The notes under the pieces were generated by a model. It did not search any database and was not told the DNA's origin. It saw nothing but the letters and a program-made list of their open reading frames with translations. From positions 39,420 through 103,419 of the forward strand of contig JARVGK010000007.1 of the NCBI GenBank assembly GCA_029762535.1: a DNA stretch of 64,000 nucleotides, written 5' to 3'. The number at the start of each line of letters is the position of its first letter. Within the stretch, counting starts at the first letter, position 1. Positions 13,065 through 37,729 of the stretch are shown piece by piece. This stretch comes from Thermoplasmatota archaeon. GTDB lineage: Archaea; Thermoplasmatota; Penumbrarchaeia; Penumbrarchaeales; Penumbrarchaeaceae. Both the position numbers and the translations under genes were made by a program.

Positions 13065-13065
13065 A

Positions 13066-14949: not shown

Positions 14950-14952
14950 GAC

Positions 14953-15774: not shown

Positions 15775-15782
15775 GTGATGTC

Positions 15783-16433
15783 ATGCCAGAAAAACTTGAC
15801 GATGATATGCAGAAGTTGATGTCGGATATAACCGAGATGGCGAGTCTCTCCAAAGGCATGCTGATCGATTCCGTCCGAGCGCTCAAGGACCTTGACGGTG
15901 ATCTCGCCAATGACATCATATCGAGAAAGGACAGGCTCTACGAGTACGATGACCGCATCGAGGAGCGGGCGTTGAAGATGCTCACGTTATACAGCCCCAT
16001 GGCCTCGGACCTCAGAAGGATAGCCACCGTTTTCAAGATGATAACGTATCTGACAAGGATAGGCAGATACGGATACGACATATCAAAGATAACCCTGCAT
16101 CTGGTGGGCAAGCCCCACGTGAAGAAACTCATAGATATCCCGCGCATGGCCGAGATCGTGGCGGGGATGATCGATGATGTCATAGGCGCATTCCACACGG
16201 GCGACCTTGATAGGATCGCGGACCTGGCAGAGAGGGACAATATCGTGGATGAGACGAGGTATTCGATATTCAGGGAGTGCCTCACATACATGATGGAGGA
16301 CCCATCGACCATAACCCGATGCACGGATTACATAATGATCGCGAGATACCTTGAGAGATGCGGCGATCACGCATGCAAGATCGGTGAGAAGGTTCATTAC
16401 ATGATAACTGGCGAAAGGGTCGAGATCTCATAA
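15783..16433 (+). CDS. phoU: phosphate signalling/uptake regulator PhoU
   Basis: Two PhoU helical repeats, including ERCGDHACKIGE. Sits immediately after pstB. Confidence 0.9.
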   Translation: MPEKLDDDMQKLMSDITEMASLSKGMLIDSVRALKDLDGDLANDIISRKDRLYEYDDRIEERALKMLTLYSPMASDLRRIATVFKMITYLTRIGRYGYDISKITLHLVGKPHVKKLIDIPRMAEIVAGMIDDVIGAFHTGDLDRIADLAERDNIVDETRYSIFRECLTYMMEDPSTITRCTDYIMIARYLERCGDHACKIGEKVHYMITGERVEIS

Positions 16434-18619: not shown

Positions 18620-19438
18620 TCACCAATCGTATGTGGAAGAGGTTGTGGACCTCATCCCGAACTGATCGGCCACATCGAGCCGTATCGAGTAGGTCATCGG
18701 TGACATCGGGAACGTGACCCTGGCCATCCTTCCGTTGAGGGGGAATTCCAGGTCGGGAGTTCCCGGGAGACCATCATGGTCATATGAGATCGTCCAGTCC
18801 CAGCTCAATATCTCTCCGCCCACCCCCGGATGATCGGAAAGCGAACCGTCGAGGACCGGGACCGATATGTACGATGCCGACCCCGCATCCCATTCCGTCT
18901 GGGTCCTTACAACGAAGACAGGGGACGGAGGGAGGAAGTTCCTGTTGAACGAGTTCCCGTAGCTGGTGGATATCTTGATGTTCAGATAGGACGTGAGCGC
19001 TATGTCCTTGTCCCCGCCGAAGAAGTAAGTGTCCGGATATACGATAATCGTCACCTGCTCAGTCGAATCCAATTTGCCCCAGGAGGCGTAATCCGTCCCG
19101 GTCTCGAGGAGAACTCCGTTCTTCATGATATCGAACTTCTCGACGACGTGTTCGTTTATGCTTATCATCCTGATGTAGGAGGTGCCCTCATGGAAGCTGG
19201 CGATGATCAATCCGATCTCGAACCACTCCGTTCCGGCAAGGTTCTCCTGAAGCGATATGGAGGATATGCCTATCTTCTCATTATCGCTGAGGTCCTGTAT
19301 CCTCTGGTTCCTCTGGTACGCGTCCTGGCGGTCAGCCACGAAAACGGCGAACGATGTGGCGGCGACGACGACGATCAGAACGAGTATCAACGCTCCGACC
19401 ACCTCGGAGACTCCCGAACCGCCCTTGATCTTCTTCAT
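18620..19438 (-). CDS. archaeal type IV pilin-like protein (class III signal peptide) with C-terminal Ig/PKD-like domain
   Basis: N-terminus MKKIKGGSG/VSEVVGALILVLIVVVAATSFAVF matches the prepilin pattern of a short basic n-region, a small residue and a long hydrophobic helix. Confidence 0.7.
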   Translation of the reverse strand: MKKIKGGSGVSEVVGALILVLIVVVAATSFAVFVADRQDAYQRNQRIQDLSDNEKIGISSISLQENLAGTEWFEIGLIIASFHEGTSYIRMISINEHVVEKFDIMKNGVLLETGTDYASWGKLDSTEQVTIIVYPDTYFFGGDKDIALTSYLNIKISTSYGNSFNRNFLPPSPVFVVRTQTEWDAGSASYISVPVLDGSLSDHPGVGGEILSWDWTISYDHDGLPGTPDLEFPLNGRMARVTFPMSPMTYSIRLDVADQFGMRSTTSSTYDW

Positions 19439-19614: not shown

Positions 19615-20229
19615 ATGGCATTGAAGATACCCGTTCCCGGAATGGACCAGTTCCTATGCGACATACCGGACGGTTCGATGCTCGTGATGTCCGGGGGCTT
19701 CGAGGGCACACAGTCATTCCTCGCACAGTCCATCGGGTACGGGGCCTACAAATCCGGAAGGGAGGTGACCTACGTCACCTCGAGGGCGATCCCGGACATC
19801 ATGGGCGAGGTAATGAGATTCGAACCGGGAGTGGTCCCTTTCTACCTTATAGAGAACGTGCCTCTAAATGATTGGAGAACGTTCATATCCTCAAAATGCG
19901 TCCTGATAGTGGACTCATACTCCCTGCTCGTTATGAACGTGGAACTCCCTCAACTGAGGGACGGGCTGATGGAGATCAAGACGATTGCGAAGGAGCGCGG
20001 GGCCACGTTGGTCCTTGTGGCCCACCCTCCTCTCATCGATGAAAGGAGAACGTCCGTCACGGAATACTTCGCCGACTCTCTTGTCGAGTTCAGGTCCCAG
20101 GAGGAGGACGAGTTCGTACGAAGATACCTGAGGGTCCACAAATGGTACGGTACGATACTGGAGCAGCTTATCTACTACAGGATCGATGAAGGGCGAATGG
20201 AGATAGACCTCAGGGCCAGGATAGTGTGA
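19615..20229 (+). CDS. KaiC/FlaH(ArlH)-like RecA-superfamily protein with degenerate Walker A
   Basis: GMDQFL..IPDGSMLVMSGGFEGTQSF aligns to the FlaH/KaiC P-loop region but lacks GK(S/T), with Q in place of K. A Walker B-like LIVDSYS is present. Confidence 0.6.
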   Translation: MALKIPVPGMDQFLCDIPDGSMLVMSGGFEGTQSFLAQSIGYGAYKSGREVTYVTSRAIPDIMGEVMRFEPGVVPFYLIENVPLNDWRTFISSKCVLIVDSYSLLVMNVELPQLRDGLMEIKTIAKERGATLVLVAHPPLIDERRTSVTEYFADSLVEFRSQEEDEFVRRYLRVHKWYGTILEQLIYYRIDEGRMEIDLRARIV

Positions 20230-20239
20230 GGACGTTCTT

Positions 20240-21754
20240 ATGATACAATCCAAGGGATACGAGAGATTCGGCCTAACGGGCAACCCTTTCCGGGACCTTG
20301 CCTCCGAGACGCTCGAGACCATCGACATCTTCCACGTCAGACAGGAGATGGACGATCATCTGCGAATGATAATCGACGAGATCTTCGAGAAGCAGTCCAA
20401 GGCGGTCGTGGCCATACTCGGAGCCCTGGGCATGGGCAAGACCCAGAGGCTTCTCCTGATCCAGAGCTGGGCCAGGGATAAGAAGGCCTACTGCGTGTTC
20501 AGGTCCATCAATCCCCAGGCAAAGCTCGTCATAAGCGATGTCATAAAGACCTTGATCGATACGGTCCCCCTGACATTCTTCGAGAGGAACATCTCCGCGC
20601 CCAGATTCTATTCGGACCTGAAGAAGGCATACAGGTCCTCCCGGAAGAAGTTCGACCCGGAACTGATCGGCAGGGCCATCGCCGGAGCCCTCAACGCCCG
20701 TTCCCCTTCGATACTTATACTTAACGACCTTCACAACGTCGATCCAACGGCCGAGCTGCCGGATTTCCTTCAGGTGCTGTATTCCATAGTCAACAACCTG
20801 GACGAGGGCGTCATGATAGCGATAGGGTCCAACTCCGCATATTTCGACGGGATAATGAAGAGGCATCAGTCCCTCGAGGAGAGGATAAACTACAAGCTGG
20901 AGGTGCAGCCCCTCATAGACACGGAGGCCCAGGAGATGGTGGCGAAGAGGCTGACGGCGAAGAGGCTCGTCGAGGACCTAAACCCCATATACCCCTTCAA
21001 CAACGATTCCATATCGATATTGAACTCGGAATCACATGGAAATCCCCGGCAGGTCCTCAAGCTCTCGGACAGGATCATCGACCAGGCCGCGACCGAGAGG
21101 GTCATACAGATAGACGCCCAGTATGCGATGGATATACTCGAGGGATCGAGACAGAAGAGGTCCCTTCCTCCGGCCCCCCATGAGATCCTCAAGAAGCTGA
21201 GGGAGGAGGCCAGGGTCAAGAGGCCGGCCATCCCGTCTCGGACCCCCCCGGGCATCTCAACAGAGTTCGAGAAGAAGGTCAAGGAATACGAGCATGCCCT
21301 GGAGAAGATGGAGAAGGCCCTGGAGAGGAAAGAACCCCTGCCTGAAAAAGAGAAGAGGATGCCCGGGGCAGCGGTCAAGGTCGATCTCCCGGTCGATGCT
21401 CCTCTGGAGGTCGCTCCATCGATGCCCGATCCGATCGGGACGGTGCCCCCGGTCAAGGTCGATCTCCCCGTCGATACTCCTCTGGAGGTCGCTCCCCCGA
21501 TGACCGGTCCTACCACGATCGTGCCCAAGCCCTCCCTGGACGAGGAGCTGCCGCTCATCATCAAGAAGAAGGTGACGATGAGAAAATTGGAGACCGTCAC
21601 CGAGGACGGCATTCCGGCGCCTCCGAAGAGCATCTTCATAATTGAGGAGAGGGAAATGCCCGGTCCTCCCAGGAAAGAGAAGGGTTCCAAGGGCGAACCG
21701 TCCGAGGATGCCGTTCTCTCCAGGTACAGGTCGGTTCCTCCGACGCGGAGTTAA
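20240..21754 (+). CDS. ExeA/GspA-like AAA ATPase with Pro-rich repeat-containing C-terminus
   Basis: The N-terminus Y..FGL..NPF followed by Walker A GALGMGKTQ and Walker B ILILNDLH resembles the ExeA (COG3267) layout. The C-terminus is Lys/Glu/Pro-rich. Confidence 0.65.
   Translation: MIQSKGYERFGLTGNPFRDLASETLETIDIFHVRQEMDDHLRMIIDEIFEKQSKAVVAILGALGMGKTQRLLLIQSWARDKKAYCVFRSINPQAKLVISDVIKTLIDTVPLTFFERNISAPRFYSDLKKAYRSSRKKFDPELIGRAIAGALNARSPSILILNDLHNVDPTAELPDFLQVLYSIVNNLDEGVMIAIGSNSAYFDGIMKRHQSLEERINYKLEVQPLIDTEAQEMVAKRLTAKRLVEDLNPIYPFNNDSISILNSESHGNPRQVLKLSDRIIDQAATERVIQIDAQYAMDILEGSRQKRSLPPAPHEILKKLREEARVKRPAIPSRTPPGISTEFEKKVKEYEHALEKMEKALERKEPLPEKEKRMPGAAVKVDLPVDAPLEVAPSMPDPIGTVPPVKVDLPVDTPLEVAPPMTGPTTIVPKPSLDEELPLIIKKKVTMRKLETVTEDGIPAPPKSIFIIEEREMPGPPRKEKGSKGEPSEDAVLSRYRSVPPTRS
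21374..21495 (+). repeat. in-frame tandem duplication, two copies with a 78-nt period
   Basis: The 44-nt cores at 21374..21417 and 21452..21495 are near-identical. They encode VKVDLPVD(A/T)PLEVAP(S/P)M twice inside the ExeA-like gene. Confidence 0.85.
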
Positions 21755-22206: not shown

Positions 22207-23610
22207 CTAGAACACGGCTATGGAGAATAGAAGGACCACGACCAGGGCGAGAACGAGCGAGTGTACCAGTCCGTAGCGGATCTTGCCCTCGGTTATCTTC
22301 CCTATTATCGTTCCAGATCCGATCCCCATTATGATCGCCAGATGGAAGAAGCGCCTCTTCAGCGTCAGAAGCCCCATCTTGACGACAGATGCGCCCCCTT
22401 CCGACCCTTCGAGTCCCTGGAAGCCGAAGACCATGGACATGTCCAGATTCTCGAACTTGGGATAGACGTCCATAAGCATGTATATGACCGTGAGGAGAAC
22501 GCCCAAGGCCATGTATATTATAGTTATCTGAATGGTCATCTGCCTCCTTCTCTCGGCCTTGACCTTCACGAAATCGTCCAGATCCCTCGCAGCCCTGTGC
22601 ACGACGACGGCTATGTTGCCCCCTATCTTCGTTGATTCGGCGATGAGCGTCGTGTACCTCTTCACCACCCTGCTGTTCGAGGGAGCGGCCACGATGTCCA
22701 GGGCCTCTTCGAACGCCCGCCCCGCCATGATGTTCTTCGAGGCGATCCTGAGGTATTTTGACATGACGCTCGAGTCGGTCTTCGCTATCTCGACTATCGC
22801 CCTGGCCGGGTCTATGCCGCCTCTCATTCCGTCCGCGATCCCGAACAGGAGCTGGGCGAACGCCGCCTCGTACCTGTTTATCCTCTTGAGCTCCCTCTGC
22901 GAGTCGATCGCGTACGGGGTCGTTCCGATGAAGAAACCGATTATCAGAACGATCTCGATCCCGAACCTTCCCAGGTCCGGATGGTCGTGGACGTAGAATA
23001 GTCCCAGTATGGTGAAGGTGATGGCGGTGAGGATCGGTACGTAGAGTATTAGATACTTCTGCTGCACCGGATGCGTTATGAGGAACTTCTTGAGCCTGAA
23101 TCTCCTCTTGGCCCTCAGATAGATATAACCGGATATGGCCAGTACCGCGAGGATGGCGAATATCACGCTGATGAAAACGAGGACCTGCATCGAGGAGGGG
23201 AGGGTGAGTTCGAACCCGGGCTCCGGTTCGTCGCTGACGATGAAGACCGAATCGACCATCGCCTCGTTCCCCGCGTTGTCCCTGATGATGAAGGTGAGAT
23301 TGTGCGGGCCGCTCGATAGGGTGTATATAGTGTCTATCTTGACCGTCATGTCGGTCTCGTTCACTATGAGGTCGAAGTAGGCGGAGACGTCGAAATCGTC
23401 GATGTAAAGAACCGCGCTTCCCGTGTCAATGCCCGAATAATCGGTGTACTTTATCTGTATCACCGGGTTGGGATCGTATATGGTCTGGTTCGCCGCGGGA
23501 TAGACCAGGGTGACGATCGGCGGATCCGTGTCCTCTGCTGATGCATAGGACATGATGAGGACCAGGGGCAACAGGAGAAGGACCGCTGCGGGGAACGTGA
23601 ACGATCTCAT
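22207..23610 (-). CDS. T2SS-F/TadC-like pilus platform protein with N-terminal signal peptide and Ig-like ectodomain
   Basis: Signal-like N-terminus. A roughly 110-aa beta module ends in IIRDNAGNEA. It is followed by TM segments and a T2SF-type cytoplasmic helical domain (INRYEAAFAQLL..ADGMRGG). Last gene of the ATPase operon. Confidence 0.75.
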   Translation of the reverse strand: MRSFTFPAAVLLLLPLVLIMSYASAEDTDPPIVTLVYPAANQTIYDPNPVIQIKYTDYSGIDTGSAVLYIDDFDVSAYFDLIVNETDMTVKIDTIYTLSSGPHNLTFIIRDNAGNEAMVDSVFIVSDEPEPGFELTLPSSMQVLVFISVIFAILAVLAISGYIYLRAKRRFRLKKFLITHPVQQKYLILYVPILTAITFTILGLFYVHDHPDLGRFGIEIVLIIGFFIGTTPYAIDSQRELKRINRYEAAFAQLLFGIADGMRGGIDPARAIVEIAKTDSSVMSKYLRIASKNIMAGRAFEEALDIVAAPSNSRVVKRYTTLIAESTKIGGNIAVVVHRAARDLDDFVKVKAERRRQMTIQITIIYMALGVLLTVIYMLMDVYPKFENLDMSMVFGFQGLEGSEGGASVVKMGLLTLKRRFFHLAIIMGIGSGTIIGKITEGKIRYGLVHSLVLALVVVLLFSIAVF

Positions 23611-24519
23611 TCAATCCACCTTTGCATAGGATGCCGATATGAACAGGTTCATGGCGATCACGGAGAAGGGGATCAGGAAATATGTCATGATTATGAGAAG
23701 GGTGCTCGCGTCTATCCCGTTGAACGTCGATGCCAGCGTCTCCATGAGGAACGCCGCCACCCCGGCGAACAATATTCCCATCAGCACCAGGCTGGTATAG
23801 ATCTCCATCAGGGTGCCGAGGCCCTCTATGAACTCCTTCTGTATGTCCCTCTTGAGTTTGAGGCTCGCATCGGCCTTGTTCCTGAGATACGTGTCCATGT
23901 CGCCGCCCTCGTGTATCATGTTCGAGAAGTCCCAGAGCATCTCCCTGAGATGCTGGGAGGGAGTCTCCTTGGCCGTCTCGCTTATGGCGGTGATTATGTC
24001 CTTCCCCTCCACGTCCAGGTGGTATATTATCTTCCTGAACTCCCTGGACATGTACTTCGAGTCCTTTCTCTGGGAGATCTTCCTCATTATCTGAACCGGG
24101 GAGAGGCCGGTGGATGCCAGGATGGAGAGCTCGCTCATGGTGAAGGGCAGCTCCTTGTCTATCTCCGACTTCTTCTTGGATATCCTCGAGGAGATGATAA
24201 GGGGATAGGAGAATATCGTGACGAGAAGGGAGACGGCAAAGAGCGAGGCCGTGAACAAGGGCCAGCCTTCCACGTTGAACATCACCCTGAAGACGAGTAT
24301 GGATATGATAAGGACCGCCGCGGCCGAGAACAGCGTGGCGTATAACATCATGGAGAGGTACATCCCCGGGGACATGTTCACGTCCCCCTTGGACAGCCTG
24401 AGCTTGAGCCGGTTCATGTCGTATTTTAGATCCAATGTGCGACCAAGGGACTGATAGGAGAAACGCTTGTACCTCTCCAGGAACCCCTCCCAGGCGGAGG
24501 GGTCATCCTTTCTTGACAT
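23611..24519 (-). CDS. T2SS-F/TadB-like pilus platform protein
   Basis: TM segments flank a T2SF domain (ELPFTMSELSILASTGLSP). Overlaps the ATPase gene by 17 nt and abuts the TadC-like gene. Confidence 0.75.
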   Translation of the reverse strand: MSRKDDPSAWEGFLERYKRFSYQSLGRTLDLKYDMNRLKLRLSKGDVNMSPGMYLSMMLYATLFSAAAVLIISILVFRVMFNVEGWPLFTASLFAVSLLVTIFSYPLIISSRISKKKSEIDKELPFTMSELSILASTGLSPVQIMRKISQRKDSKYMSREFRKIIYHLDVEGKDIITAISETAKETPSQHLREMLWDFSNMIHEGGDMDTYLRNKADASLKLKRDIQKEFIEGLGTLMEIYTSLVLMGILFAGVAAFLMETLASTFNGIDASTLLIIMTYFLIPFSVIAMNLFISASYAKVD

Positions 24520-26254
24520 CGATGGCCCCCATCGATTCGAGGTTGACCATGGCCTTCGTGGGGTCCATGTAGAATTCGTTTATCGCCCTGCTCACGTCCT
24601 TGTAATACGTCAGGTTCTTCTGGTCCATCAGCTTGAGGTATTTCTCCTTGCGGTATATCTCGTCCATTATGGACTGGAGCGTCTTTCCGGTCGATCTCGC
24701 TATGTCCTCTATCAGGAAGCTCCTCCCCGTGAACTTGAACGCATCGTTCGTGGGATCCCACGTGAAGGGGGCGTTCGTCAGAAGGTTCTTTGAGGATGGC
24801 TCGATGTCCAGGACCTCCGTCACGCCCTTGACGCGCCTGACCCTCCTGCCCCTGTACACGACCTGCCCCTGGAAAACGACGGCGTCGAGCGACATGAACA
24901 GGGACCTGGGTATGTCCATCGGGGGGTTCTCCACCCTGTGTATCAGCTCGTCGATGGAGCCGGCGTGTATCGTCGCCATCGCGGCGTGCCCGACGGCTAT
25001 GGCCTGGAACAGGGTGAACGCCTCCTTGCCCCTGACCTCCCCCACTATCACGTATTCCGGTCTCTGTCTCAGGGCCGCTACCAGCAGGTCGAACATCGAT
25101 ATGCTCCCCGAGGACCCTCCCGAGGCGCTGACCCCGAACCCCCCCCTTGATACGGACTGTATCCAGTTGGTGTGGTCGATGTGGATCTCGGGGGTGTCCT
25201 CTATGGAGACCACCTTGTCCTCCGGCTTCACGAACATGCACAGCGCGTTCATGAGCGTGGTCTTGCCCGAGGCCGTGCCTCCGGAGATGAGAAGCGACCT
25301 CTTATACTCGATTATCGTCCAGAAGTAGGCGAGCTGGAAGGCGGAGATCGATCCGAACCTCATGAGGTCCACAGGTGAGATGGGATCGTGGGAGAACTTC
25401 CTTATCGTGAAGGTGGAACCTTTTCTCGTGACCTCGGAGCCCAGCGTCAGGTTGATCCTCGAGCCGTCGGTGAGGGTGGCGTCGAGTATGGGCTGATAGA
25501 CGGAGACGTGCTTTCCGGCGACCTGGGCGAGTTTTACGACATAGCGGTTCAGCTCCACATCGGAGGGGAATTGTATGTTGGTCTTCATTGACCCCATCCC
25601 CCTGTGGAATATGTAGATGGGGATGTTGGGTCCGTTGCAGGATATGTCCTCTATGAACGGGTCCTTGATGAGGGCGTCCGCCCTCCCCCAGCCGATGAGG
25701 TCCCTCTGGAGGTAGTAGAAGAGGACGCGCCTCCTCTTCTCGTCAAGGTCTATGTTGTAGAGGTCCAGAACTGACTGGTAGAGGCCGAGTATGTAGTTCC
25801 TGAGCTGGTCGGAGCGTCCGTACTCGGAACCCTCGGAGATCGGGAGCTCGTCCTGGTCCATTGCGACCTCCATCTTCGACTTTATGCTCTGGATGAGGTC
25901 CTCCTCGCCCTCTTTGAGCCTGGGCTCCTTTATGAGGTACTTCATCTCGCCCTCTTTTCTGTCATATGTGATGTTGACGAAGGAATAAGGAGGGTTCACC
26001 GGATAGGTCAGGTTGACCCCGAGCTTCTCCTTGTCCAGTTCCCGCCTCATGAAGTTGAGCTCGCGCTGGATGATTATCTTCTCGGAGATCTCGCCTTTCT
26101 TCCTCAGCTGGGATTCGATCTCGCGGGCGCGCTTTCGAAGCTTTTCCCGGAACTCGGGATCCTCCATCCTGTCGTCCGTGAGCTTCTCCTTCTTCATGAA
26201 GGGCAGGTCCGCCGATGCGGTCCATTTTACAATTCTATCCATTAATCCTGTCAA
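24503..26254 (-). CDS. type II/IV secretion ATPase of the FlaI(ArlI)/PilB/VirB11 family
   Basis: Walker A SGGTASGKTTLMNAL, Asp/His-box region SIEDTPEI and VGEVRGKEAFTLFQAIAVGH. Confidence 0.9.
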   Translation of the reverse strand: MTGLMDRIVKWTASADLPFMKKEKLTDDRMEDPEFREKLRKRAREIESQLRKKGEISEKIIIQRELNFMRRELDKEKLGVNLTYPVNPPYSFVNITYDRKEGEMKYLIKEPRLKEGEEDLIQSIKSKMEVAMDQDELPISEGSEYGRSDQLRNYILGLYQSVLDLYNIDLDEKRRRVLFYYLQRDLIGWGRADALIKDPFIEDISCNGPNIPIYIFHRGMGSMKTNIQFPSDVELNRYVVKLAQVAGKHVSVYQPILDATLTDGSRINLTLGSEVTRKGSTFTIRKFSHDPISPVDLMRFGSISAFQLAYFWTIIEYKRSLLISGGTASGKTTLMNALCMFVKPEDKVVSIEDTPEIHIDHTNWIQSVSRGGFGVSASGGSSGSISMFDLLVAALRQRPEYVIVGEVRGKEAFTLFQAIAVGHAAMATIHAGSIDELIHRVENPPMDIPRSLFMSLDAVVFQGQVVYRGRRVRRVKGVTEVLDIEPSSKNLLTNAPFTWDPTNDAFKFTGRSFLIEDIARSTGKTLQSIMDEIYRKEKYLKLMDQKNLTYYKDVSRAINEFYMDPTKAMVNLESMGAIDVKKG

Positions 26255-26446: not shown

Positions 26447-27595
26447 GTGAAAGAAATGAAGCACATGAAAAACGACAAGGCAGGGGTCTCCCCGGTCATT
26501 GCCACGTTGATATTGGTGCTCATCGCCGTAGCGGCGGGAGTTGCCTTTTTCGCATGGCAGTCTGGCTGGCAGGAAGACGCCACAGGTAACATAAGCAATG
26601 CGAACGCACAGACGGAGATAACCATCGGTGGATCCTCCACCGTCTATCCTTTCACGGCAGTTGCGGCTGAGGCTTTCATGGAAGCCAACCCCACCGTGAA
26701 GATCTCCTACCAGTCCGGTGGATCCGGTGCAGGAACCGCTGGCGTCAGGGAGGGTGTCATCGATATCGGTGCCGCCTCCTCCGACAGGACCCAGGCCAAG
26801 CACTTCCCCGACCACCCCGACGTGGTCATCACCGCCGTCGGCTATGACGCCGTCGGTGTCGTCGTCGATGATGGCAACACCAGGATAAACGATATCAACG
26901 CAACCGTCGCAATCGAGATCTTCACAATGGTCATCACCGACTGGAACCAGGTCCCTGTTGCATCTGGCGCGTCCGGAACTGGCACAACTGGTGCAGCTGG
27001 TTCTGAGACCACTGTAACAGTCTCCACCGGAACCCTTGCAATTGGCAGGTACAGGATGTGGTCTGCAACAACTCTCGTGAGGACTGTCGATGTTATAGCT
27101 GCAAATACGCTCCCCTCAGATCTCTTCGGAGCATCCGCATCCATCTCCTGGCAGGTTATCACCTCCGCTACCTCCGCTCCTATCGAAGTCTACGACAGGG
27201 CTGACAAGTCCGGAACCGAGGAGTGCTTCAACGAGAAGCTCCTCGGCCTCGATGGATCCTCCATCCCCGAAGGTGATCAGACCGGTGTCGCAGGCAATCA
27301 GGAAATGCTCGACCTCTTCGAGGCTGGCGCACCCAACGCTATCGGATTCATCTCCACCGGTGTCGCCACCTCCGATGTGAAGCTCGTCACCCTCGACGGC
27401 GTCGCCGCCACCGAGGAGAACATCGCTGACGGGTCCTACACCGCCCAGAGGCCCCTGAACTATATGTACATCCCCTCCCAGCTCGGCGGAAAGCTCGCCA
27501 TCGTTGAGGCGTACATAGACTTCTGCATGTCCCCCAAGAACAATATTGACTTCGCCCACTCCGTGGACTACCTCTCCTGGTATGACCTCGAGTAA
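26447..27595 (+). CDS. pstS2: PstS-family phosphate-binding protein with archaeal class III (prepilin-type) signal peptide
   Basis: N-terminus MKEMKHMKNDKAG/VSPVIATLILVLIAVAAGVAFF. PstS motifs GGSSTVYPF, SGGSGAG and DRADKSGT. A Gly/Thr/Ser/Ala-rich insertion lies between the lobes. Confidence 0.8.
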   Translation: MKEMKHMKNDKAGVSPVIATLILVLIAVAAGVAFFAWQSGWQEDATGNISNANAQTEITIGGSSTVYPFTAVAAEAFMEANPTVKISYQSGGSGAGTAGVREGVIDIGAASSDRTQAKHFPDHPDVVITAVGYDAVGVVVDDGNTRINDINATVAIEIFTMVITDWNQVPVASGASGTGTTGAAGSETTVTVSTGTLAIGRYRMWSATTLVRTVDVIAANTLPSDLFGASASISWQVITSATSAPIEVYDRADKSGTEECFNEKLLGLDGSSIPEGDQTGVAGNQEMLDLFEAGAPNAIGFISTGVATSDVKLVTLDGVAATEENIADGSYTAQRPLNYMYIPSQLGGKLAIVEAYIDFCMSPKNNIDFAHSVDYLSWYDLE

Positions 27596-27708: not shown

Positions 27709-30700
27709 ATGGATCTCAAGGTTCCGAATTGGGCTGTTGCGATAGTTCAGGCATTGATATTCGTCATAATCTTCTTCCCCGCCCTCTTCGCATTGGACTC
27801 ATTCTATCTACAATTGCCTTTCTTCATCCTGGAATTGATCATGATCTTCATCGTTCTCACCAAGAAGGATATGAGATTCTTTTACATGTTCTGGCAGTTC
27901 CAGATATATCTCCTCATTCTATTCAAGGTGATATTCGATTACAATACAACGTTCAAGACGATCGATTCTGAACCATTGGCGATCATTGTCATCTCGTTCT
28001 TCATAACATTCCTGGAAGCATTGATCCTTGTGGGATTCATCCTTCGGGAAAAGGGCGTTAAGCCCATACTTGTGACACTGTCCTCAACGACCAGCATCGT
28101 TGTGCTGCTCATTATCATTTTTATTTTCAAGGAAGGTCTCCCGGCTTTTTCGGAGAACGATCCTATCGAGTTCTTGACAGGAAATAGCTGGACGGCAGAT
28201 TATGAACCATCCTTGGAAGATACGATCCTGATCGAGGTCGTTGTTTCGGATTACGATCACGAAATATCGATACCGGATGATAGGCTGTATCTCGCAATAG
28301 ATGAGAACCATACTGTTCCCATCGATCTGAAGAACACCGGATCGAAGGATGATACCTATCTGTTAAGTTTGGAATATCCCTCCGGTCTATCGGTTCAGGA
28401 TCATCAAAGAACTGTTTTTTTAAGATCTGGATCGGATCATACTTTCGATATCGATCTTTCTTCAAATATTTCCATGGACTTGGATCTGAGGATCATTGTG
28501 GGATCCATGAATGGAAGTATATCAAAGGAAAGGACAATAGACCTGGCTTTCGGAGACGTTGGGATCGATGCGGGGCCGGAGTACTTCCATTATCTGAATT
28601 CGGAGATGAATGTCCCTCGCACTCCTTTTTGGGTGAAGAATACCGGGAACGTAGTTGAGACCTATTCCGTGACATTGACCTTCGATGAAGAGATCATCAA
28701 ACCTTTTGTGACCGGGACCGACAATGATTGGGACCACGATAACGATACAGTTGACATCACCCTGGACCCCATGGAAACCGTTTCCTTCAACGTGATAACA
28801 AGGATCCTGAACCTTCGCCCGTTCAGGTCTACAATAACGATCGATGTCGTGTCAAGGACGGATCCCGGCATATATGACAGCATAGTGATCGACTTCGAGT
28901 ATCGGGACAGGAGCTATTTCGATCACGATCAAACTTCTTTCGTCGTATCCAAAGGCTCCGATGTCATCATCCCGGTCTTCGTCAATATCACAAACCCGGC
29001 AAATTCCAATTTCTTCATACTGGTTGAAGATGGGAACGGGCCCCTGGAGACCTTCAGCCTATCGTATGATTCCGTAAATATCGATGAAATCGATGAAAAG
29101 GTTCCGATCAACCTATCATCGGGTATGAAGACCCTTCTATTGACCGTCAGGTCCAATTCGAATATCGGAGGATCGGAGAATATCACCCTTAATATCACAT
29201 TGGAGAGGGAAGGGACCTATCCTTCCTTCGGCATCGGCCCGATGATCGTCGGCACGTTCATCACCGTCCTTGTCGCATTGATCATAGCCGTTCCATTAGG
29301 ACTGGGTACGGCGATCTTTTTGGCGGAATACTGCCCCAAGAAACTGCACATCTTCCTGCGTCCTATGTTCGAACTTTTGGCCGGGATCCCTTCGATAGTT
29401 TACGGCCTCTGGGGATATTTCACATTGGTACCCTTCTTCAGGGACAACATATACGGCCCGGTGAGTGGATCTTTGGGATTGGCGATCCCCTTCCTAAGGA
29501 TCACACCGGAGACCCCCAGTTCCGAGGGGACCGTGATCGTTGCCGGTTTCGTCCTATCAATTATGATACTTCCGATCATCATAACCCTTTCCGAAGATTC
29601 TATACGAGCCGTTGCCAGGAGCCTGAAGGAGGGATCGCTCTCATTGGCCACGACTAAATGGCAGACGATAAGAGGCGTGGTCCTGAAAAGAGCGAAAAGC
29701 GGGATCATATCCTCTATCATTTTGGCCATGGGAAGGGCCATAGGCGAGACCATGGCTGTTATAATGATACTCAGGATAGCGACGAATTATCCGAGTTCGC
29801 TCTTCGAACGGGCAGGGTCAATGACCGCGGTCATCGCCGGGACCTTCGGATGGGCATTCGATCTCGATCTTTCAAGACATGCCGTCTTTGGGGTTGCGAT
29901 CGTGCTGTTCATGATCGTCTTCGTTCTTAACCTGATAGTCTTCAGGATACAGAACGGTGAGAAGAAGGGAAGTATCGCTTTCCGGTGGGTAAATCGTATC
30001 GTCGAGAAGGCCATCAATTATTGTTTCAGGAAAAAAGAAGACATGAGGACCCTTCCGACCAAGGGACCGGTGTTCGATAAAAAGAATATGACATCACTTG
30101 GCTTTTTACGGTTCCAGGAATACCTGTTCAGGTCATTGTTCGCGCTATCGGCAATAGTGATCTTCATATTCCTCCTGCTTGTCCTAAGCAATGTTTTCAT
30201 TACGGGAATATCATCGATGAAATTATACTATCTTTTCGAAAAGGAAGTCGCGGGAGGATTGGAGGACGGTGGATTCCTCAATGCCATTCTCGGTTCCCTT
30301 CAGCTGACGTTCTTGGCATTATTGATCTCCTCCATATTCTCGTTGGGAGCGGCCATATACATTACACAGTTCAGCAAACAGAACAATATCCTAACGAGGA
30401 CCATACTCTTCTCTTCCGATACCCTTGCTGCGACGCCTTCGATCGTATTCGGGGCATTTGGGTTCATTTTCTTCTCCATCGAGCTCAAACTAGGCCTGTC
30501 GATGTTGTCGGCAGCGCTTACTCTGTCAATAATGGTGATCCCCCTCCTTTTAAGAAGTTCGATAGAAGCTCTCAACAGCATACCCAGAGAGCTTGGGGAT
30601 GGTTCCCTGGCATTGGGAGCGAGTAAATGGCAGACGGTGTGGAACGTGATATTGCCGCCGGCATTGGGGGGAATATCAAGTGGCGTTATCCTTTCCATCG

Positions 30701-30954
30701 GCAGGGCCATCGGAGAGACGGCGGCCATCCTTTTCACGGCAGGTTATGCCCTGACCATAAACAACTCCATAATGTCATCGGTTGCGACCATGCCGAATAT
30801 GATCTACAATTACTATGGTCTCAGCTCCCACAATCCCGCCCTTCAGGATAAATTATATTCATGTGCCCTTGTCTTGATCGTCCTGGTATTGATCCTGAAC
30901 TCCATCGCCCGTTTATCACAGATAAGAACGAACAAATTGAAGGGGAATTATTAG
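27709..30954 (+). CDS. pstCA2: PstC-PstA fusion permease with N-terminal TM extension and a large extracellular loop insertion
   Basis: 1081 aa. PstC core: FGIGPMIVGT..LAGIPSIVYG..GRAIGETMAV. PstA core: LAATPSIVFG..GRAIGETAAI. About 340 non-membrane residues lie between TGNSW (aa 157-161) and YPSFGIGP (aa 504-511). Confidence 0.85.
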   Translation: MDLKVPNWAVAIVQALIFVIIFFPALFALDSFYLQLPFFILELIMIFIVLTKKDMRFFYMFWQFQIYLLILFKVIFDYNTTFKTIDSEPLAIIVISFFITFLEALILVGFILREKGVKPILVTLSSTTSIVVLLIIIFIFKEGLPAFSENDPIEFLTGNSWTADYEPSLEDTILIEVVVSDYDHEISIPDDRLYLAIDENHTVPIDLKNTGSKDDTYLLSLEYPSGLSVQDHQRTVFLRSGSDHTFDIDLSSNISMDLDLRIIVGSMNGSISKERTIDLAFGDVGIDAGPEYFHYLNSEMNVPRTPFWVKNTGNVVETYSVTLTFDEEIIKPFVTGTDNDWDHDNDTVDITLDPMETVSFNVITRILNLRPFRSTITIDVVSRTDPGIYDSIVIDFEYRDRSYFDHDQTSFVVSKGSDVIIPVFVNITNPANSNFFILVEDGNGPLETFSLSYDSVNIDEIDEKVPINLSSGMKTLLLTVRSNSNIGGSENITLNITLEREGTYPSFGIGPMIVGTFITVLVALIIAVPLGLGTAIFLAEYCPKKLHIFLRPMFELLAGIPSIVYGLWGYFTLVPFFRDNIYGPVSGSLGLAIPFLRITPETPSSEGTVIVAGFVLSIMILPIIITLSEDSIRAVARSLKEGSLSLATTKWQTIRGVVLKRAKSGIISSIILAMGRAIGETMAVIMILRIATNYPSSLFERAGSMTAVIAGTFGWAFDLDLSRHAVFGVAIVLFMIVFVLNLIVFRIQNGEKKGSIAFRWVNRIVEKAINYCFRKKEDMRTLPTKGPVFDKKNMTSLGFLRFQEYLFRSLFALSAIVIFIFLLLVLSNVFITGISSMKLYYLFEKEVAGGLEDGGFLNAILGSLQLTFLALLISSIFSLGAAIYITQFSKQNNILTRTILFSSDTLAATPSIVFGAFGFIFFSIELKLGLSMLSAALTLSIMVIPLLLRSSIEALNSIPRELGDGSLALGASKWQTVWNVILPPALGGISSGVILSIGRAIGETAAILFTAGYALTINNSIMSSVATMPNMIYNYYGLSSHNPALQDKLYSCALVLIVLVLILNSIARLSQIRTNKLKGNY

Positions 30955-31557: not shown

Positions 31558-32784
31558 ATGTTGATAGAGTTCAAGCTCAGGAACTTCAGGTCCATCAGGG
31601 ACGAGATGACCTTCAGCCTGCTGGCATCGAGCGACAGGACGCATTCCCAGAACTTAATCGTTCACGATGCATTGAAAAAGGACCTTCTGCTTAAGAGCGC
31701 CGTGATCTACGGCGCCAACGCTTCGGGTAAGACCAACGTTCTTCTGGGTTTGAACACCCTAAGAGGACTTGTCGTCCATTCTCACAGCAACCAGATAGGT
31801 CAGGAGCTTCCTTACGAGCCGTTCAGATTGGACGAAAGGGCCGGGTCCGACGATACCTCCTTCCGGATCGCATACATTCATAAGGACATCAAGTACATCT
31901 ACGAGCTCTCCTACAACAGGGAAAAGGTTGTTGATGAGGTTCTCTACAGCTATCCGCAGGGAAGAAGGTCGTTGCTCTTTTCAAGGACCGGAACGGATAA
32001 TTACAGGTTCACCAAAGATGAAAAGGAGCAGACCCTGATCAAAGAAAGGACACCCCCGAACGTCCTCTACCTTTCAAGGGCCGCACAGTTCAACTACCAA
32101 CCTGCAATAGATGCGTTCGAATGGTTCAAGGAAAAGCTGAAATTTATAGGACCTTCCGACCATATCAATCTGATGAAGTTCACAAGCAAAATGCTGGAGG
32201 ACCCCAAGAGCAAGGACATGATCCTTCAGGGGCTCAGGACCGCGGACCTCGGGATAGACGATGTCATCCTCAACAATGTCACTATCAGGGCCGAGGAGCT
32301 GCCCGGGGACCTCCCTTCGGAGCTAAAGGATAGGTTGGTAGGCTCCGAACGTACTAGGATATTGACATATCATAAGGGTGTTCCGTTTGACCTTTCAGAT
32401 GATGAGTCCGAAGGCACCAAGAGAATGTTCCATCTGATCGGACCCGTAATAAAAGCTCTCAACGATTCACAGGTCCTCCTGATAGACGAGCTCGATACAA
32501 AGCTCCATCACCTTATGAACATCTTTTTGATAGAGCTGTTCCAGAATACCGACAACCCTTCATCCCAGCTCGTGTTCACAACACACAACACAACCCTTCT
32601 CGAATCCGAACTCTTCAGAAGGGACCAGATATGGTTCACCGAAAGACGGCCTGATGACGATTCGACCGACCTCTACTCTCTCCTTGAGTTCCACCCCAGA
32701 AACGATGCGAACATAAAGATAGGATACCTGTCGGGAAGGTACGGTGCCATACCTCTCATCAAGAGCGAAAGGTTGTGCCCATGA
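31558..32784 (+). CDS. AAA_15/AAA_21-type ABC-like ATPase (AbiLi-like partner of RloB)
   Basis: N-terminus F.L.NFRSI, Walker A GANASGKTN, Walker B LLIDELDTKLH and FTTHN. Overlaps the RloB gene by 10 nt. Confidence 0.85.
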   Translation: MLIEFKLRNFRSIRDEMTFSLLASSDRTHSQNLIVHDALKKDLLLKSAVIYGANASGKTNVLLGLNTLRGLVVHSHSNQIGQELPYEPFRLDERAGSDDTSFRIAYIHKDIKYIYELSYNREKVVDEVLYSYPQGRRSLLFSRTGTDNYRFTKDEKEQTLIKERTPPNVLYLSRAAQFNYQPAIDAFEWFKEKLKFIGPSDHINLMKFTSKMLEDPKSKDMILQGLRTADLGIDDVILNNVTIRAEELPGDLPSELKDRLVGSERTRILTYHKGVPFDLSDDESEGTKRMFHLIGPVIKALNDSQVLLIDELDTKLHHLMNIFLIELFQNTDNPSSQLVFTTHNTTLLESELFRRDQIWFTERRPDDDSTDLYSLLEFHPRNDANIKIGYLSGRYGAIPLIKSERLCP

Positions 32785-33404
32785 CCGAAAGAGGCTATTC
32801 CAGGAGAAGGGACCGAACGCGGCGTTCCTTTAACACGGTCCTCGTTGTCTGTGAAGGGCTCAAGACGGAAAGGATATATCTGAAAGGATTGAACGAAAGG
32901 TACGGTCGTGTTCATATCCTACCTGTTCATTCCGGTTCGACCGATGTCAGGTCCATGGTAAGATTTGCTGTGGGAAAGAGAAGGGAATACCAGTTCCGGG
33001 AAGGGGACGGGAACGAGACCTGGTGCGTCTTCGACGTGGATGAGAAGGACGATGATGAGCTCCTTCAATGGATCCCATATGCAGAAAGGAACGGTGTGAT
33101 GGTGGCTCTCTCCAATCCTTCTTTTGAGCTCTGGTACCTCCTTCATTTCGATTACAGGCCCGGTCCGACCGACAGGTACAAGGTCCTGGAGGACCTGAAA
33201 AGGTCCATACCTGATTACGAGAAGAGCGGTTGTTACAATCATATCCTTTACCCCCTGACCATGAATGCAATAGATAATTCCAAACGATTGAACAAAGAAC
33301 ATTCAAGGATAGGAGTTGACCTTAACTCCAAAAAGGCCAACCCATCGACCCAGGTCTTCAAGCTTATCGAAGCGGTCAAACTTTTAAAAGAAAGGAATGG
33401 ATAA
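32775..33404 (+). CDS. RloB-like (Toprim-related) protein, AbiLii-like
   Basis: RloB family hallmarks VLVVCEGLKTERIY, WCVFDVDE and SNPSFELWYLLHF. Confidence 0.85.
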   Translation: MPMTERGYSRRRDRTRRSFNTVLVVCEGLKTERIYLKGLNERYGRVHILPVHSGSTDVRSMVRFAVGKRREYQFREGDGNETWCVFDVDEKDDDELLQWIPYAERNGVMVALSNPSFELWYLLHFDYRPGPTDRYKVLEDLKRSIPDYEKSGCYNHILYPLTMNAIDNSKRLNKEHSRIGVDLNSKKANPSTQVFKLIEAVKLLKERNG

Positions 33405-35685: not shown

Positions 35686-36633
35686 TCACTTCATGAAGGA
35701 AGCGCGGTATGCGATCTCGGCTATCTCGTCGATGTAGGTTATTATCCTGTTGAACGAATCGGCCACTTCCGCCCAAGCGATCGCGTTCTCGGCCCCGTCG
35801 TGTACCCGGTCTACCCATCGAAGCTCCCTGCAGGAATGGATCACGCTCTCGGACACCTCGGCATCCTTCTCCAGAAACGCCTTGACGGACCGGTCCAGTA
35901 TCTCCTGCAGCTGGAAGAACGCCGTATCGGGCGGGATCGGACCCTGCCCCGACGCGACCTTGGCCATATTCAATGCGTGGTCCGCGATCCTCTCGAGATT
36001 GTTGCTCACGGTCACGTAATTGCTGCCGTTGTCCCTGTATATTCCAAGCGTCTCCGAGTTCGATGAATCGTATAGAACAAGGTTGTAATGCCTCTTTATG
36101 AGCCAGTTGTAAAAGTTTACGCTGTGGTCCATATCCTCCATGTCGGGGATGCGGCCCTTGTCCCCCTCCATGCTCTCCACCGAAAGCCGGAGCATGCTCC
36201 GCGTCATCTTGTGCATCCTCTCGAGCGCCCTGACGGTGTCGTACCTGGAATAATCCAGAAGGTCCCTGGCGACGAGGCGGTCGGCCTCCTCCTCGACGAT
36301 CTCGAACCCGGTGATCCTGGACAGCACCGTTTTGATGTCGGACCTCAGCCTGTTCGGGTCCCTGTCCCCGAACCTGAAGTTTATGGCGGTGAACCCGGAT
36401 ATGTAAAGGCCGATTATCTTTCGGTAGAGGGTGTCGATATCGTCATCGACGACCATGTCATATTCCCTGGGATTGCGCGGCCTTCCGGGGATGTTGAGCA
36501 CCATGGTCCCGTCCCCCCTCAACGAGAGCTTCATGCTCTCCCCCTTGGACAGGCCGCTCCTGACAACCCAATCCTTCGGAAGGGATATCGTGAAGGTCGA
36601 GTGCCCTGTCTTCTGGATCTTTCTCGTATCCAT
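35686..36633 (-). CDS. AbrB/SpoVT-domain plus PhoU-domain phosphate uptake regulator
   Basis: Start taken at MDTRKIQKTGHSTFTISLPKDWV (AbrB-like swapped hairpin). PhoU repeat with NNLERIADHALN. The ORF-track start at 36798 would overlap the upstream gene. Confidence 0.8.
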   Translation of the reverse strand: MDTRKIQKTGHSTFTISLPKDWVVRSGLSKGESMKLSLRGDGTMVLNIPGRPRNPREYDMVVDDDIDTLYRKIIGLYISGFTAINFRFGDRDPNRLRSDIKTVLSRITGFEIVEEEADRLVARDLLDYSRYDTVRALERMHKMTRSMLRLSVESMEGDKGRIPDMEDMDHSVNFYNWLIKRHYNLVLYDSSNSETLGIYRDNGSNYVTVSNNLERIADHALNMAKVASGQGPIPPDTAFFQLQEILDRSVKAFLEKDAEVSESVIHSCRELRWVDRVHDGAENAIAWAEVADSFNRIITYIDEIAEIAYRASFMK

Positions 36634-36697
36634 GCGACCATATTCGCTATCAAGGTAGTTTATGATTGTCAATATATAATATATTGGACCATATATA

Positions 36698-37729
36698 CTA
36701 TGTATTATGCGGGGCCGCGAATTCGCGCGAGAAGAGCTGATTGATGGATATCTCGCATATGTCCTGCATGTAAGATACGATCCTGTCCATCGAATCAAGG
36801 ACGAAGGCGCAAGCGAGTGATGCCTGGGTCCTGTCGGCAGAAGCGAGAAGGGGGTCCCTTATCGCGCGGATGTTCCTCTCGAGATCGGCGCATTTATTTA
36901 CAAGGGAATCGGACATGGCCAGATCGCCCCTGTTGAACGCCTCCATGGCATTGTCCAGGATGCGCACCATGGCCGCGTTGATCCGGTTCATCCCTGATAG
37001 GTCCATGCCTTCCCCCACCGCGTCCCAGTATTTACCGATCCTCAGGACATGCCGGCTTATCCTCTCCAGACACCTCACAAGAAGAAGGTATCCCAGGGCC
37101 CCGTGGACCTTCATCTCCTCCTCGGTCTCGTCCCTGGATATCCTGGTGTAGTTCTTCATGATGAGGAGATGGAACCTCTGTATCTCGGCATATCTCTCCT
37201 CGAGCTCTCCGACGTTCGGAGCGTCCCCTCCTTTGCGGTCCGGGATGTACTTCATCATGCCCCTGACGATGAGATGGACCCTTCTCACCGACTGTTCGAA
37301 GGAGAATCTGCCCTTGACGGTGAGGTCCCTCACGATAACATGGTCCGAATCCTCCTCGATTATATCCAGACCGGTGAAGCTGGATAATATGGACCTGATC
37401 GAGTCACGGGACACTAAATCGTTCTCCTCCATATCGAGCCTTATGGAATCATATCCCGCCAGATAGGCCGCGGTGAAGGCCCGCAGGACGTCCTCCGGAT
37501 CCTTCCCGCGCATGTCGATCCTGTAAGGAGGGGTCCTGTCGACCGGGACAGAGATATCCAGGAGGGGCTTGAACAGTATCGTTCGGTCGGATACGGGAAT
37601 TATGTTCATGTTGTCGCCGTTCTTGAGCCCCAATCTCTCGACCCATTTCTTAGGGAGAGTAATGAGGAACGTGGAGTTGCCCGAGCACTGTATCCTTCTC
37701 ATCTCGGATAATACCTCATCCATACGCAT
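36698..37729 (-). CDS. AbrB/SpoVT-domain plus PhoU-domain phosphate uptake regulator (paralogue)
   Basis: Start [30 protein letters not shown] at 37729, overlapping the pstB2 stop by 1 nt (TGATG). PhoU-like helices (LERISRHVLRIG). Confidence 0.8.
   Translation of the reverse strand: MRMDEVLSEMRRIQCSGNSTFLITLPKKWVERLGLKNGDNMNIIPVSDRTILFKPLLDISVPVDRTPPYRIDMRGKDPEDVLRAFTAAYLAGYDSIRLDMEENDLVSRDSIRSILSSFTGLDIIEEDSDHVIVRDLTVKGRFSFEQSVRRVHLIVRGMMKYIPDRKGGDAPNVGELEERYAEIQRFHLLIMKNYTRISRDETEEEMKVHGALGYLLLVRCLERISRHVLRIGKYWDAVGEGMDLSGMNRINAAMVRILDNAMEAFNRGDLAMSDSLVNKCADLERNIRAIRDPLLASADRTQASLACAFVLDSMDRIVSYMQDICEISINQLFSREFAAPHNT

Follow-up and report, generated by a model that had tools for sequence, protein, structure and literature searches.

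The 64,000-nucleotide (nt) window analyzed here (the whole stretch of DNA under study; positions 39,420 to 103,419 of contig JARVGK010000007.1, assembly GCA_029762535.1) comes from a Thermoplasmatota archaeon and contains two pst phosphate-uptake loci. We focus on the second, whose binding-protein gene, pstS2 (26447..27595, forward strand), encodes a prepilin-type N-terminus and lies beside genes of the pilus-assembly kind. Read from a GTG start, the pstS2 open reading frame (ORF) spans 382 amino acids (aa) and matches PF12849, TIGR02136 and TIGR02537, as well as the fold of 4gd5, a solved PstS. A gene for a fused PstC-PstA permease of 1081 aa (PstCA2; 27709..30954, forward strand; TIGR02138, 1.2e-125, and TIGR00974, 1.7e-112) begins 114 bp downstream. 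Divergent from pstS2, on the reverse strand, are genes for a FlaI-like ATPase of the type IV pilus/archaellum type (24503..26254, probable start ATG 26242; PF00437, 2.8e-32, and PilB3_C) and for a FlaJ/TadC-like platform in two T2SSF-domain halves, the first at 23611..24519 and the second (TadC2) at 22207..23610, both recognized by Pfam/NCBIfam and kept in related loci. The pilus cluster is preceded, at a distance of 10 kb upstream, by a complete conventional pst operon (12045..16433) for a lipobox PstS1, a 627-aa fused PstCA, PstB and PhoU, and the organism thus has two Pst systems with differently anchored receptors.

Fold and N-terminal signal of PstS2

The more likely start of pstS2 is the ATG at 26456, which has AGGTGA 5 nt upstream and is where the database gene call (P0001) begins; it gives a 10-aa leader, MKHMKNDKAG, followed by VSPVIATLILVLIAVAAGVAFFAW. 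Residue numbers below refer to the GTG ORF unless stated, with helix and model positions partly in P0001 numbering (from ATG 26456).

Structurally, the predicted fold and the ligand motifs show PstS2 to be a PstS-family binding protein. The sequence matches Pfam PF12849 (PBP_like_2; 2.2e-24, 87.1 bits against a 27-bit cut-off) in two separate stretches, and TIGR02136 (2.8e-42, 144.9 bits) in two stretches split by an insertion, the latter score being under the 206.6-bit cut-off, as is that of PstS1 from the same window (181 bits). An AlphaFold2 model built from 82 homologues (mean pLDDT 89.3) has the two-lobed binding-protein fold, and when it was compared with the PDB by Foldseek the top 41 matches were all PstS or phosphate-binding proteins, led by the phosphate-bound PstS of C. 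perfringens, 4gd5 (E = 1.6e-20, TM-score 0.88 normalized to the target). An initial annotation of this DNA had called the gene a PstS paralogue; the ORF and its translation agree with what was stated there, and all three signatures listed were located (GGSSTVYPF at 61-69, SGGSGAG at 90-96 and DRADKSGT at 250-257), together with a further motif (A-S-x-D) at 107-113, and the segments GSSTV, GGSG, GAASSD and RADKSGT align with motifs of solved PstS proteins, including 4gd5. Key residues of these motifs, which we take to be phosphate ligands from what is established for E. coli PstS, are invariant or nearly so across the family, with S60, G88, G89, R248, G253 and T254 invariant in a 32-sequence family alignment. 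Functionally, the best explanation of these sequences is that PstS2 acts as the working phosphate receptor of a second Pst importer made up of PstCA2 and the ABC ATPase PstB2 (37729..38484, reverse strand; Walker A GPSGCGKST), which probably serves PstCA2 and has orthologues (55-66% identity) near the module in other loci.

The initial annotation had also proposed a prepilin signal, made up of a short basic n-region, a small residue and a VSPVIATL helix (residues 14-21), and sequence comparison confirmed that PstS2 carries such a class III (prepilin-type) signal. The N-terminus scores 22.5 bits against TIGR02537 (archaellin/type IV pilin N-terminal domain; cut-off 20) and matches the UpsA pilin model weakly, below its cut-off. 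As in archaeal class III signals generally, a short basic leader ending in Gly/Ala is followed directly by a hydrophobic helix of roughly 20 residues or more; in the model this helix is 32 residues long (13-44 in P0001 numbering). Cleavage is predicted after G13 (nt 26485|26486), which would expose a mature N-terminal hydrophobic/amphipathic helix of the pilin alpha-1 type, VSPVIATLILVLIAVAAGVAFFAWQSGWQED (26486..26578, forward strand), a feature assigned from TIGR02537, the model and an alignment with Iho670, the adhesion-filament subunit of Ignicoccus hospitalis. This alignment came from a phmmer search with the first 86 residues of PstS2 against all PDB sequences (5kyh_A, E = 2e-5; 3j1r_A, 3.5e-4), in which V14 onward pairs with residue 1 onward of the deposited Iho670 chain (VSPVIATLLLILIAVAAAVLLYTWVSG versus VSPVIATLILVLIAVAAGVAFFAWQSG), and the mature helix is identical to Iho670 residues 1-27 at 21/27 positions. 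Because the alignment begins at chain residue 1, the predicted +1 residue of PstS2 corresponds to the first residue of a solved pilin-like subunit.

Could this likeness to pilins be a matter of chance, with PstS2 an ordinary Sec-exported or lipoprotein PstS and its insertion an annotation or assembly artefact? One hydrophobic signal peptide can look much like another, and the TIGR02537 score is merely 2.5 bits over the cut-off. When the N-terminus was inspected for a standard Sec/Tat signal, however, neither a Cys lipobox nor a twin-arginine motif was present and the pilin N-terminal model matched instead, with the Iho670 match starting exactly at mature residue 1. Further, some 60 homologues from independent assemblies share the N-terminal motif, and the insertion is in frame, kept in two homologues (66-68% identity) and predicted to fold, all of which leaves this explanation scarcely credible. 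Nor is the class III signal the default of the organism: PstS1 (12045..13064) has a lipobox signal, IVAGC, and TadC2 a Sec-type signal, and the prepilin-type signal is thus a specific choice for PstS2.

In the 32-sequence family alignment, identity to the query is 61% over the helix (P0001 residues 11-36), 31-40% over the lobes and 14% over the insertion. The helix is therefore the most conserved segment of the family, which suggests a role beyond sitting in the membrane. This bears on an alternative in which the helix is merely an anchor and PstS2 an ordinary tethered receptor, while the neighboring genes make an adhesion pilus from a separate 272-aa pilin; such a pilus would be co-regulated with the Pho regulon, for example for attachment under scarce phosphate, and would not handle PstS at all. 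Pilins do sit in the membrane before assembly, so that an unassembled PstS2 could function, and docking on PstCA needs membrane proximity. Yet a plain anchor leaves unexplained both the excess conservation of the helix over the lobes and its near-identity to a filament-core helix, and the same genome anchors PstS1 by a lipobox.

Linkage of prepilin-type PstS to assembly genes

Beyond what the initial annotation had recorded, the key context of pstS2 is, from gene order, the divergently adjacent pilus-assembly set, whose pairing with prepilin-type PstS is conserved across two archaeal classes. In addition to the ATPase and the split platform, the cluster encodes a KaiC/ArlH (FlaH)-like ATPase (19615..20229, forward strand; PF06745, 6.7e-8; DUF7125 in homologues), found in 33/41 loci with full flanks, and an AAA+ (AAA_22-type) ATPase with a Pro-rich repetitive tail (20240..21754, forward strand), found in 29/41. 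Farther out is a 272-aa archaeal type IV pilin (18620..19438, reverse strand; Pilin_N 27 bits, cut-off 25.2) with the class III signal MKKIKGGSG|VSEVVGALILVLIVV, homologues of which occur in most related loci and which from its sequence is a candidate filament subunit. Against curated models, the assembly ATPase scores 410 bits for FlaI (cut-off 550) and 193 for BasE of the Sulfolobus bindosome (cut-off 1000), the platform 77 for ArlJ (cut-off 550) and 40 for BasF (cut-off 1300), and the KaiC-like ATPase 43.5 for ArlH (3e-11; cut-off 215). An identity as an archaellum was rejected, as all of its models score below cut-off and as neither an archaellin nor any stator or switch gene (ArlF/G/C/D/E/X) came up when the cluster ORFs were scanned with Pfam and NCBIfam. 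Membership of the Bas system was rejected as well: its proteins belong to the same superfamily, but its models score lower than FlaI and ArlJ.

Several proteins of the cluster carry additional domains. TadC2 combines its Sec-type signal with an N-terminal extracellular Ig-like domain of ~100 aa (Big_3_2, E = 0.016), in place of which its counterpart in Methanolobus carries a Big_1 domain at the C-terminus, and the AAA_22-type protein resembles XrtA/PEP-CTERM system-associated ATPases only faintly (E = 1e-3).

A protein search with PstS gave 98 homologues, ~60 of which, from independent assemblies, share an (A/G)|VSP(V/I)(I/V)ATL N-terminus, some of them labelled 'flagellin-like protein' by JGI. 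In each of six metagenome contexts (6/6; PstS 28-68% identity), an ATPase-T2SSF-T2SSF set is divergent from PstS and accompanied by KaiC-like and pilin-sized genes. Scanning species-representative genomes added 80 further loci, from Thermoplasmata, Methanomassiliicoccales, 'Lutacidiplasmatales', Methanolobus, Methanomethylovorans and Methanoregula, for 86 non-redundant loci overall from the PstS side. The assembly ATPase is linked to PstS in 73 of these 86, divergently adjacent in 65 (median gap 381 bp) and downstream on the same strand in 8; another 5 are too short to judge, and the last 8 are without an ATPase, several having flanks too short for the downstream order, or platform genes only. 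A search from the ATPase side, made with an alignment as query (a single ATPase sequence gave none), returned orthologues of 55-63% identity from JGI metagenomes, and in all 63 of the 63 loci with enough upstream DNA a PstS gene is divergently adjacent, at gaps of 274-559 bp; the other 17 ATPase loci end too near the ATPase to judge. In 39/41 full-flank loci, further pst or phoU genes are found no more than 10 kb away, and a soil Thermoplasmata clade has pstS without pstCA directly after it.

Methanolobus sp. ZRKC2, whose genome is complete, has a different arrangement, pstS (prepilin-type)-pstC-pstA-ATPase-T2SSF-T2SSF, after which come a KaiC-like gene, a gene for a class III-signal PKD protein, and phoU (locus L069, 9983..20695 of NZ_CP146980.1; further Methanosarcinales loci are L045, L052, L059 and L089). 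As the gene order has been reshuffled between the classes and the linkage kept, the genes are best regarded as a functional module, and on this comparative evidence prepilin-type PstS is paired with the assembly set in an essentially obligate manner across two archaeal classes. In these Methanosarcinales the ATPase and the two T2SSF genes come directly after pstS-pstC-pstA, on the same strand and at the usual position of pstB, and pstB was not detected within 10 kb on either side; their assembly ATPase also has a charged, low-complexity N-terminal extension of ~280 aa. In some Thermoplasmata, a second prepilin-type PstS copy lies away from the ATPase (L060 and L070, with L051 from the same metagenome-assembled genome as L070), and one machinery may thus serve more than one PstS paralogue.

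These copies can also be read in favor of the plain anchor described above, as can the presence in the cluster of a separate pilin. What that alternative has most difficulty with is the 63/63 linkage from the ATPase side, which survives rearrangement between Thermoplasmata and Methanosarcinales and is stronger than typical co-regulation, and on balance we regard it as unlikely. A further alternative keeps PstS2 on the pilus and changes its purpose, so that it would act there as an adhesin or sensor, in the position of a minor or tip pilin, and bind to phosphate groups of minerals, polymers or other cells. There are precedents in bacterial modular pilins with functional domains (S. sanguinis PilB, PMC8179133) and in the PstS-containing appendages of P. 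aeruginosa, which promote adherence (PMC2242829), and the soil clade without pstCA after pstS, like the large lineage-specific insertions in the head domain, would fit. The case for transport is the stronger one, since PstS2 keeps every motif with which transport PstS proteins hold their small-anion ligand, pstCA follows pstS directly both here and in many other loci, pstB/phoU are within 10 kb in nearly all, and the Methanolobus pstS is the first gene of a pstSCA operon; a purely adhesive or sensory PstS2 is thus quite improbable, more so than a simple anchor.

PstCA2 itself departs from the conventional permease. Mapped against PstCA1 of the same window, it has a beta-rich insert of ~335 aa in the first extracellular loop of PstC (~28204..29208, between 'GNSWTAD' and 'EGTYPSFGIGP'; no family match) and an extra N-terminal transmembrane region of ~120 aa. 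The size of PstCA2 is kept in Thermoplasmatota loci (985-1126 aa), and the ~335-aa insert, which neither PstCA1 nor the PstC of Methanolobus has, could serve a pilin-like PstS as an extracellular docking tower. Beyond pstCA2, pstB2 and two PhoU-domain/AbrB-type phosphate-regulator genes (ORFs 35686..36798 and 36698..38017, together 35686..38017, assigned from domain matches) are on the strand opposite to pstS2 and within 11 kb of it. The regulator ORF 36698..38017 overlaps pstB2 and its start is uncertain; the same regulator pair is present in the closest related contig (L001) and in other loci. Between pstCA2 and these genes is an AbiLi/AbiLii (AAA_21 + RloB) abortive-infection pair (31558..33404), in a stretch with a GC content of 0.48-0.50 versus ~0.55, absent at the equivalent position in L001 and probably a recent defence-island insertion that split the pst locus.

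Elsewhere in the window, 43060..47181 encodes a secreted protein of 1373 aa in which a gingipain-like Peptidase_C25 domain is combined with several Ig-like domains of the bacterial type, and 9354..11930, directly upstream of the first pst operon, encodes an 858-aa protein of the STAND type (NB-ARC/AAA + TPR) whose N-terminus weakly matches an HTH (E 7e-4). When 8-mers were counted in ~110 pstS-upstream regions in search of a regulatory motif, the coding VSP motif, sequence resembling ribosome-binding sites, and one-clade conservation dominated.

The insertion in lobe II

The insertion that splits the family matches of PstS2 is 72 aa long (residues 170-241; 26954..27169, forward strand) and, from the alignment to 4gd5 and from models, is predicted to be an orphan six-stranded beta module. 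PstS2 residues 50-169 align with 4gd5 31-146 and residues 242-364 with 4gd5 149-265, and the gap between the two blocks defines the insertion, which replaces a two-residue turn. The initial annotation had counted roughly 70 extra residues here, which this mapping bears out, and a check of ordinary lipoprotein PstS found the segment missing from them: the spacing from GGSG to RxxSGT is 162 residues in PstS2 versus 87-91 in bacterial lipoprotein-type PstS. The same short spacing (87-91) is found in Methanosarcinales prepilin-type PstS, with 112-131 in most Thermoplasmatota prepilin-type PstS, 160-217 in the query clade and a soil Thermoplasmata clade, and 309 in one protein (P0057). The insertion had been placed between the lobes; in the model it is instead a surface loop inside lobe II, off the inter-lobe hinge, coming after the first helix of that lobe (149-156) and before the strand that bears the R-x3-SGT ligands.

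As to its nature, the description of the segment as beginning with a Gly/Ser/Thr/Ala-rich linker agrees with its composition (Thr+Ser 32% versus 15% elsewhere in PstS2) but not with the models, which predict an autonomously folding beta module rather than mainly a linker: six beta strands at pLDDT 83-93 in the full model, and the same six at pLDDT 80 when the insertion is modeled alone with its two homologues. The suggestion of a glycosylated spacer finds no positive support, as the insertion has no N-X-S/T sequon (the sole N-glycosylation sequons in PstS2 are at N48 and N151); O-glycosylation of the insertion is possible, as is the role of oligomerization element that had also been suggested. 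From the initial reading, then, the PstS paralogue, the prepilin signal and the extra segment stand, and the inter-lobe position, the mainly-linker nature and the support for a glycosylated spacer do not.

Relatives of the insertion are few. A Pfam scan at E-values of up to 1 gave nothing, and the best Foldseek match of the isolated-insertion model in the PDB had E 0.09 and a TM-score of ~0.35, so that its weak likeness to Ig-like domains or to the F1-ATPase N-terminal beta barrel was set aside as not significant. An exhaustive profile search of 1.84e9 representative proteins recovered only its own cluster and three repeat proteins, which were judged spurious (a WD-like 'GRFLTWS' motif or Asn/Ser-rich repeats). 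Among all sequences and the 169 loci examined, the query-type insertion is shared by no proteins but P0002 and P0003 (66-68% identity), which come from other samples, have it in frame and keep the core motif G-x-Y-R-x-W-S-x-x-T-L-x-R; a tblastn search of all 169 fetched loci found it in L001 only. Soil and peat Thermoplasmata PstS of 450-600 aa (P0036-P0063) have larger, Cys-containing inserts at the same lobe II site, unrelated in sequence to that of PstS2, plus C-terminal extensions, with P0057 having ~220 extra residues there.

Inserts from different clades at this site are not mutually alignable, and by sequence the site is a permissive loop, a hot spot filled differently by lineage, with the query insertion lineage-specific and not family-defining. 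It is also too variable between lineages, and missing from too many, to belong to the core mechanism. Our best guess is that it serves as an exposed decoration for head-to-head, array or envelope contacts, or varies under selection by viruses, which attach to archaeal pili in Pyrobaculum according to the preprint 10.64898/2026.04.22.720090. Involvement in ligand binding is unlikely, and on its own the insertion is of modest interest, as the mark of a permissive PstS loop that hosts different beta modules by lineage.

A proposed pilus-coupled phosphate receptor and its known counterparts

A pilin-type front end with its own assembly genes adjoining suggests that this PstS receptor is mounted on a pilus-like structure and not simply tethered to the membrane. 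The best explanation of the N-terminal sequence is that PstS2 is exported as a type IV pilin-like precursor, and we consider it probable, from its gene context, that it is functionally coupled to the adjoining assembly machinery. We posit the following sequence of events, in which leader cleavage, assembly by the neighboring machinery, the form of the structure and the role of the insertion are all inferred. A prepilin peptidase encoded elsewhere would remove the basic leader of ~10 residues after Gly13, leaving a hydrophobic helix nearly identical to the filament-core helix of Iho670. The FlaI-like ATPase and the split FlaJ/TadC platform, modulated by the ArlH/KaiC-like ATPase, would then extract or position this helix, and PstS2, probably with the 272-aa pilin, would be assembled into a pilus-like or short pseudopilus array that displays the PstS heads. 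Such an array would present phosphate receptors to PstCA2/PstB2, as a phosphate-specific counterpart of the Sulfolobus bindosome; its assembled form may be a long filament, a short stalk or a membrane-proximal array.

Several points weigh against this pilus-mounted receptor. In the model, the helix is followed by a 16-residue linker (pLDDT 65-70) and then by a 33-kDa binding domain, with no pilin-type beta domain behind the helix; a homopolymer with 33-kDa heads is sterically uncertain, and the need for PstS to dock on a membrane permease would be awkward for a long static filament. The support for coupling comes from gene linkage and the helix rather than from cleavage or polymerization. Genetically, the prepilin-type copies L060, L070 and possibly L062 have no adjoining ATPase, the machinery is by its sequence not orthologous to BasEF (compare the BasE score above), and no prepilin peptidase was found among the window ORFs scanned (larger ORFs only, with Pfam). 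Prepilin peptidases (PibD/FlaK/EppA family) are usually encoded elsewhere. Finally, the insertion, only 14% identical across lineages and absent from most, has functional readings that go beyond its sequence.

A bolder version of the same idea, which we offer tentatively and hold to be doubtful, is a phosphate-scavenging pilus in which PstS is itself a polymerizing subunit, major or interspersed. The filament, possibly dynamic, would be made by the adjoining ArlH/I/J-like machine, would catch phosphate outside the cell envelope and would return it to the Pst permease, with the ~335-residue PstC tower as docking station in Thermoplasmatota and the lobe II modules as an outer surface shaped by packing or by virus pressure. 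If true, it would be the first case of a 'nutrient pilus' that is substrate-specific and genetically self-contained, and a tractable model for bindosome architecture. Ecologically, the module is common in Thermoplasmata of soil, peat and sediment, where phosphate is often scarce, and may matter for phosphorus acquisition by these abundant and uncultured archaea.

How does the module compare with known systems? Canonical PstS (E. coli, 4gd5, and PstS1 of the same window) shares with PstS2 the fold, the ligand motifs and the association with pstC/A-pstB-phoU, but has a Sec or lipoprotein signal, a 2-residue turn at the insertion site and no associated pilus genes. Iho670 (5kyh, 3j1r) has a near-identical mature helix with the same +1 residue, but its head is a beta-rich pilin domain in a homopolymeric filament, whereas that of PstS2 is a two-lobed binding protein. 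The archaellum core supplies the best-scoring curated models for the cluster ATPase (FlaI), platform (ArlJ/FlaJ) and KaiC-like protein (ArlH), and differs in that the platform of the cluster is split into two genes. In multidrug-resistant P. aeruginosa, PstS is displayed on appendages under phosphate limitation (PMC2242829, PMC3949141); a pilin-type N-terminus is not reported for it, and the resemblance to the archaeal system is a loose functional analogy only.

A prepilin signal on a binding protein is an already known kind of feature, with examples from Sulfolobus going back about 25 years. The appearance of the bindosome, and whether its binding proteins polymerize, are still debated. Class III-signal binding proteins were predicted in euryarchaea in 2007 (FlaFind, Szabo et al., as cited in PMC3387779), and a 2026 preprint by Sivabalasarma and Albers (10.64898/2026.04.22.720090) counts 4364 of them, usually co-localized with ABC transporters and not with pilus clusters, and puts forward the hypothesis that binding proteins functionalize pilus-type machineries; its text is without phosphate or Pst. 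Transporters in pilus loci are not mentioned by Makarova et al. (2016), and in the searchable literature we found no paper joining 'PstS' and 'bindosome' and no relevant paper joining 'PstS' with 'class III signal peptide' or 'FlaI'. PstS2, from a euryarchaeal lineage, fits this predicted class in its class III motif, helix and binding domain, but adjoins both an ABC transporter and pilus genes.

The closest counterpart is the Sulfolobus bindosome, which is thought to assemble class III-signal binding proteins by means of a pilus-type machinery (PMC3047682; PMC3387779). The likeness lies in the use of a pilus-type ATPase and platform for functional surface localization, shown in Sulfolobus and proposed for PstS2, and in the small pilin-like proteins that accompany the machinery. 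The substrates and hosts differ: the sugar-binding GlcS, AraS and TreS carry class III signals and are served by BasABC-BasEF in Sulfolobales, whereas the predicted substrate of PstS2 is phosphate and its module is found in Thermoplasmatota or Methanomicrobia. So does the machinery, which, compared with Bas, has an ArlH/KaiC-like ATPase and a platform split in two genes. The PstS2 gene and its machinery are physical neighbors, whereas the single Bas locus of Sulfolobus acts for several binding-protein genes located far from it (10.64898/2026.04.22.720090). This sharing of one Bas machinery among many distant sugar-binding proteins is partly why the bindosome picture has stayed unsettled, and the PstS2 module is simpler: one receptor with a known ligand, one ABC permease and one assembly machine, genetically locked together in Thermoplasmatota and in Methanomicrobia, among them Methanolobus species that are in culture. 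What is new, to judge from the searchable literature, is the phosphate specificity and the obligate pairing, in two classes, with a dedicated, non-Bas, ArlHIJ-like set, through which the general hypothesis of 'functionalized type IV filaments' becomes a testable case.

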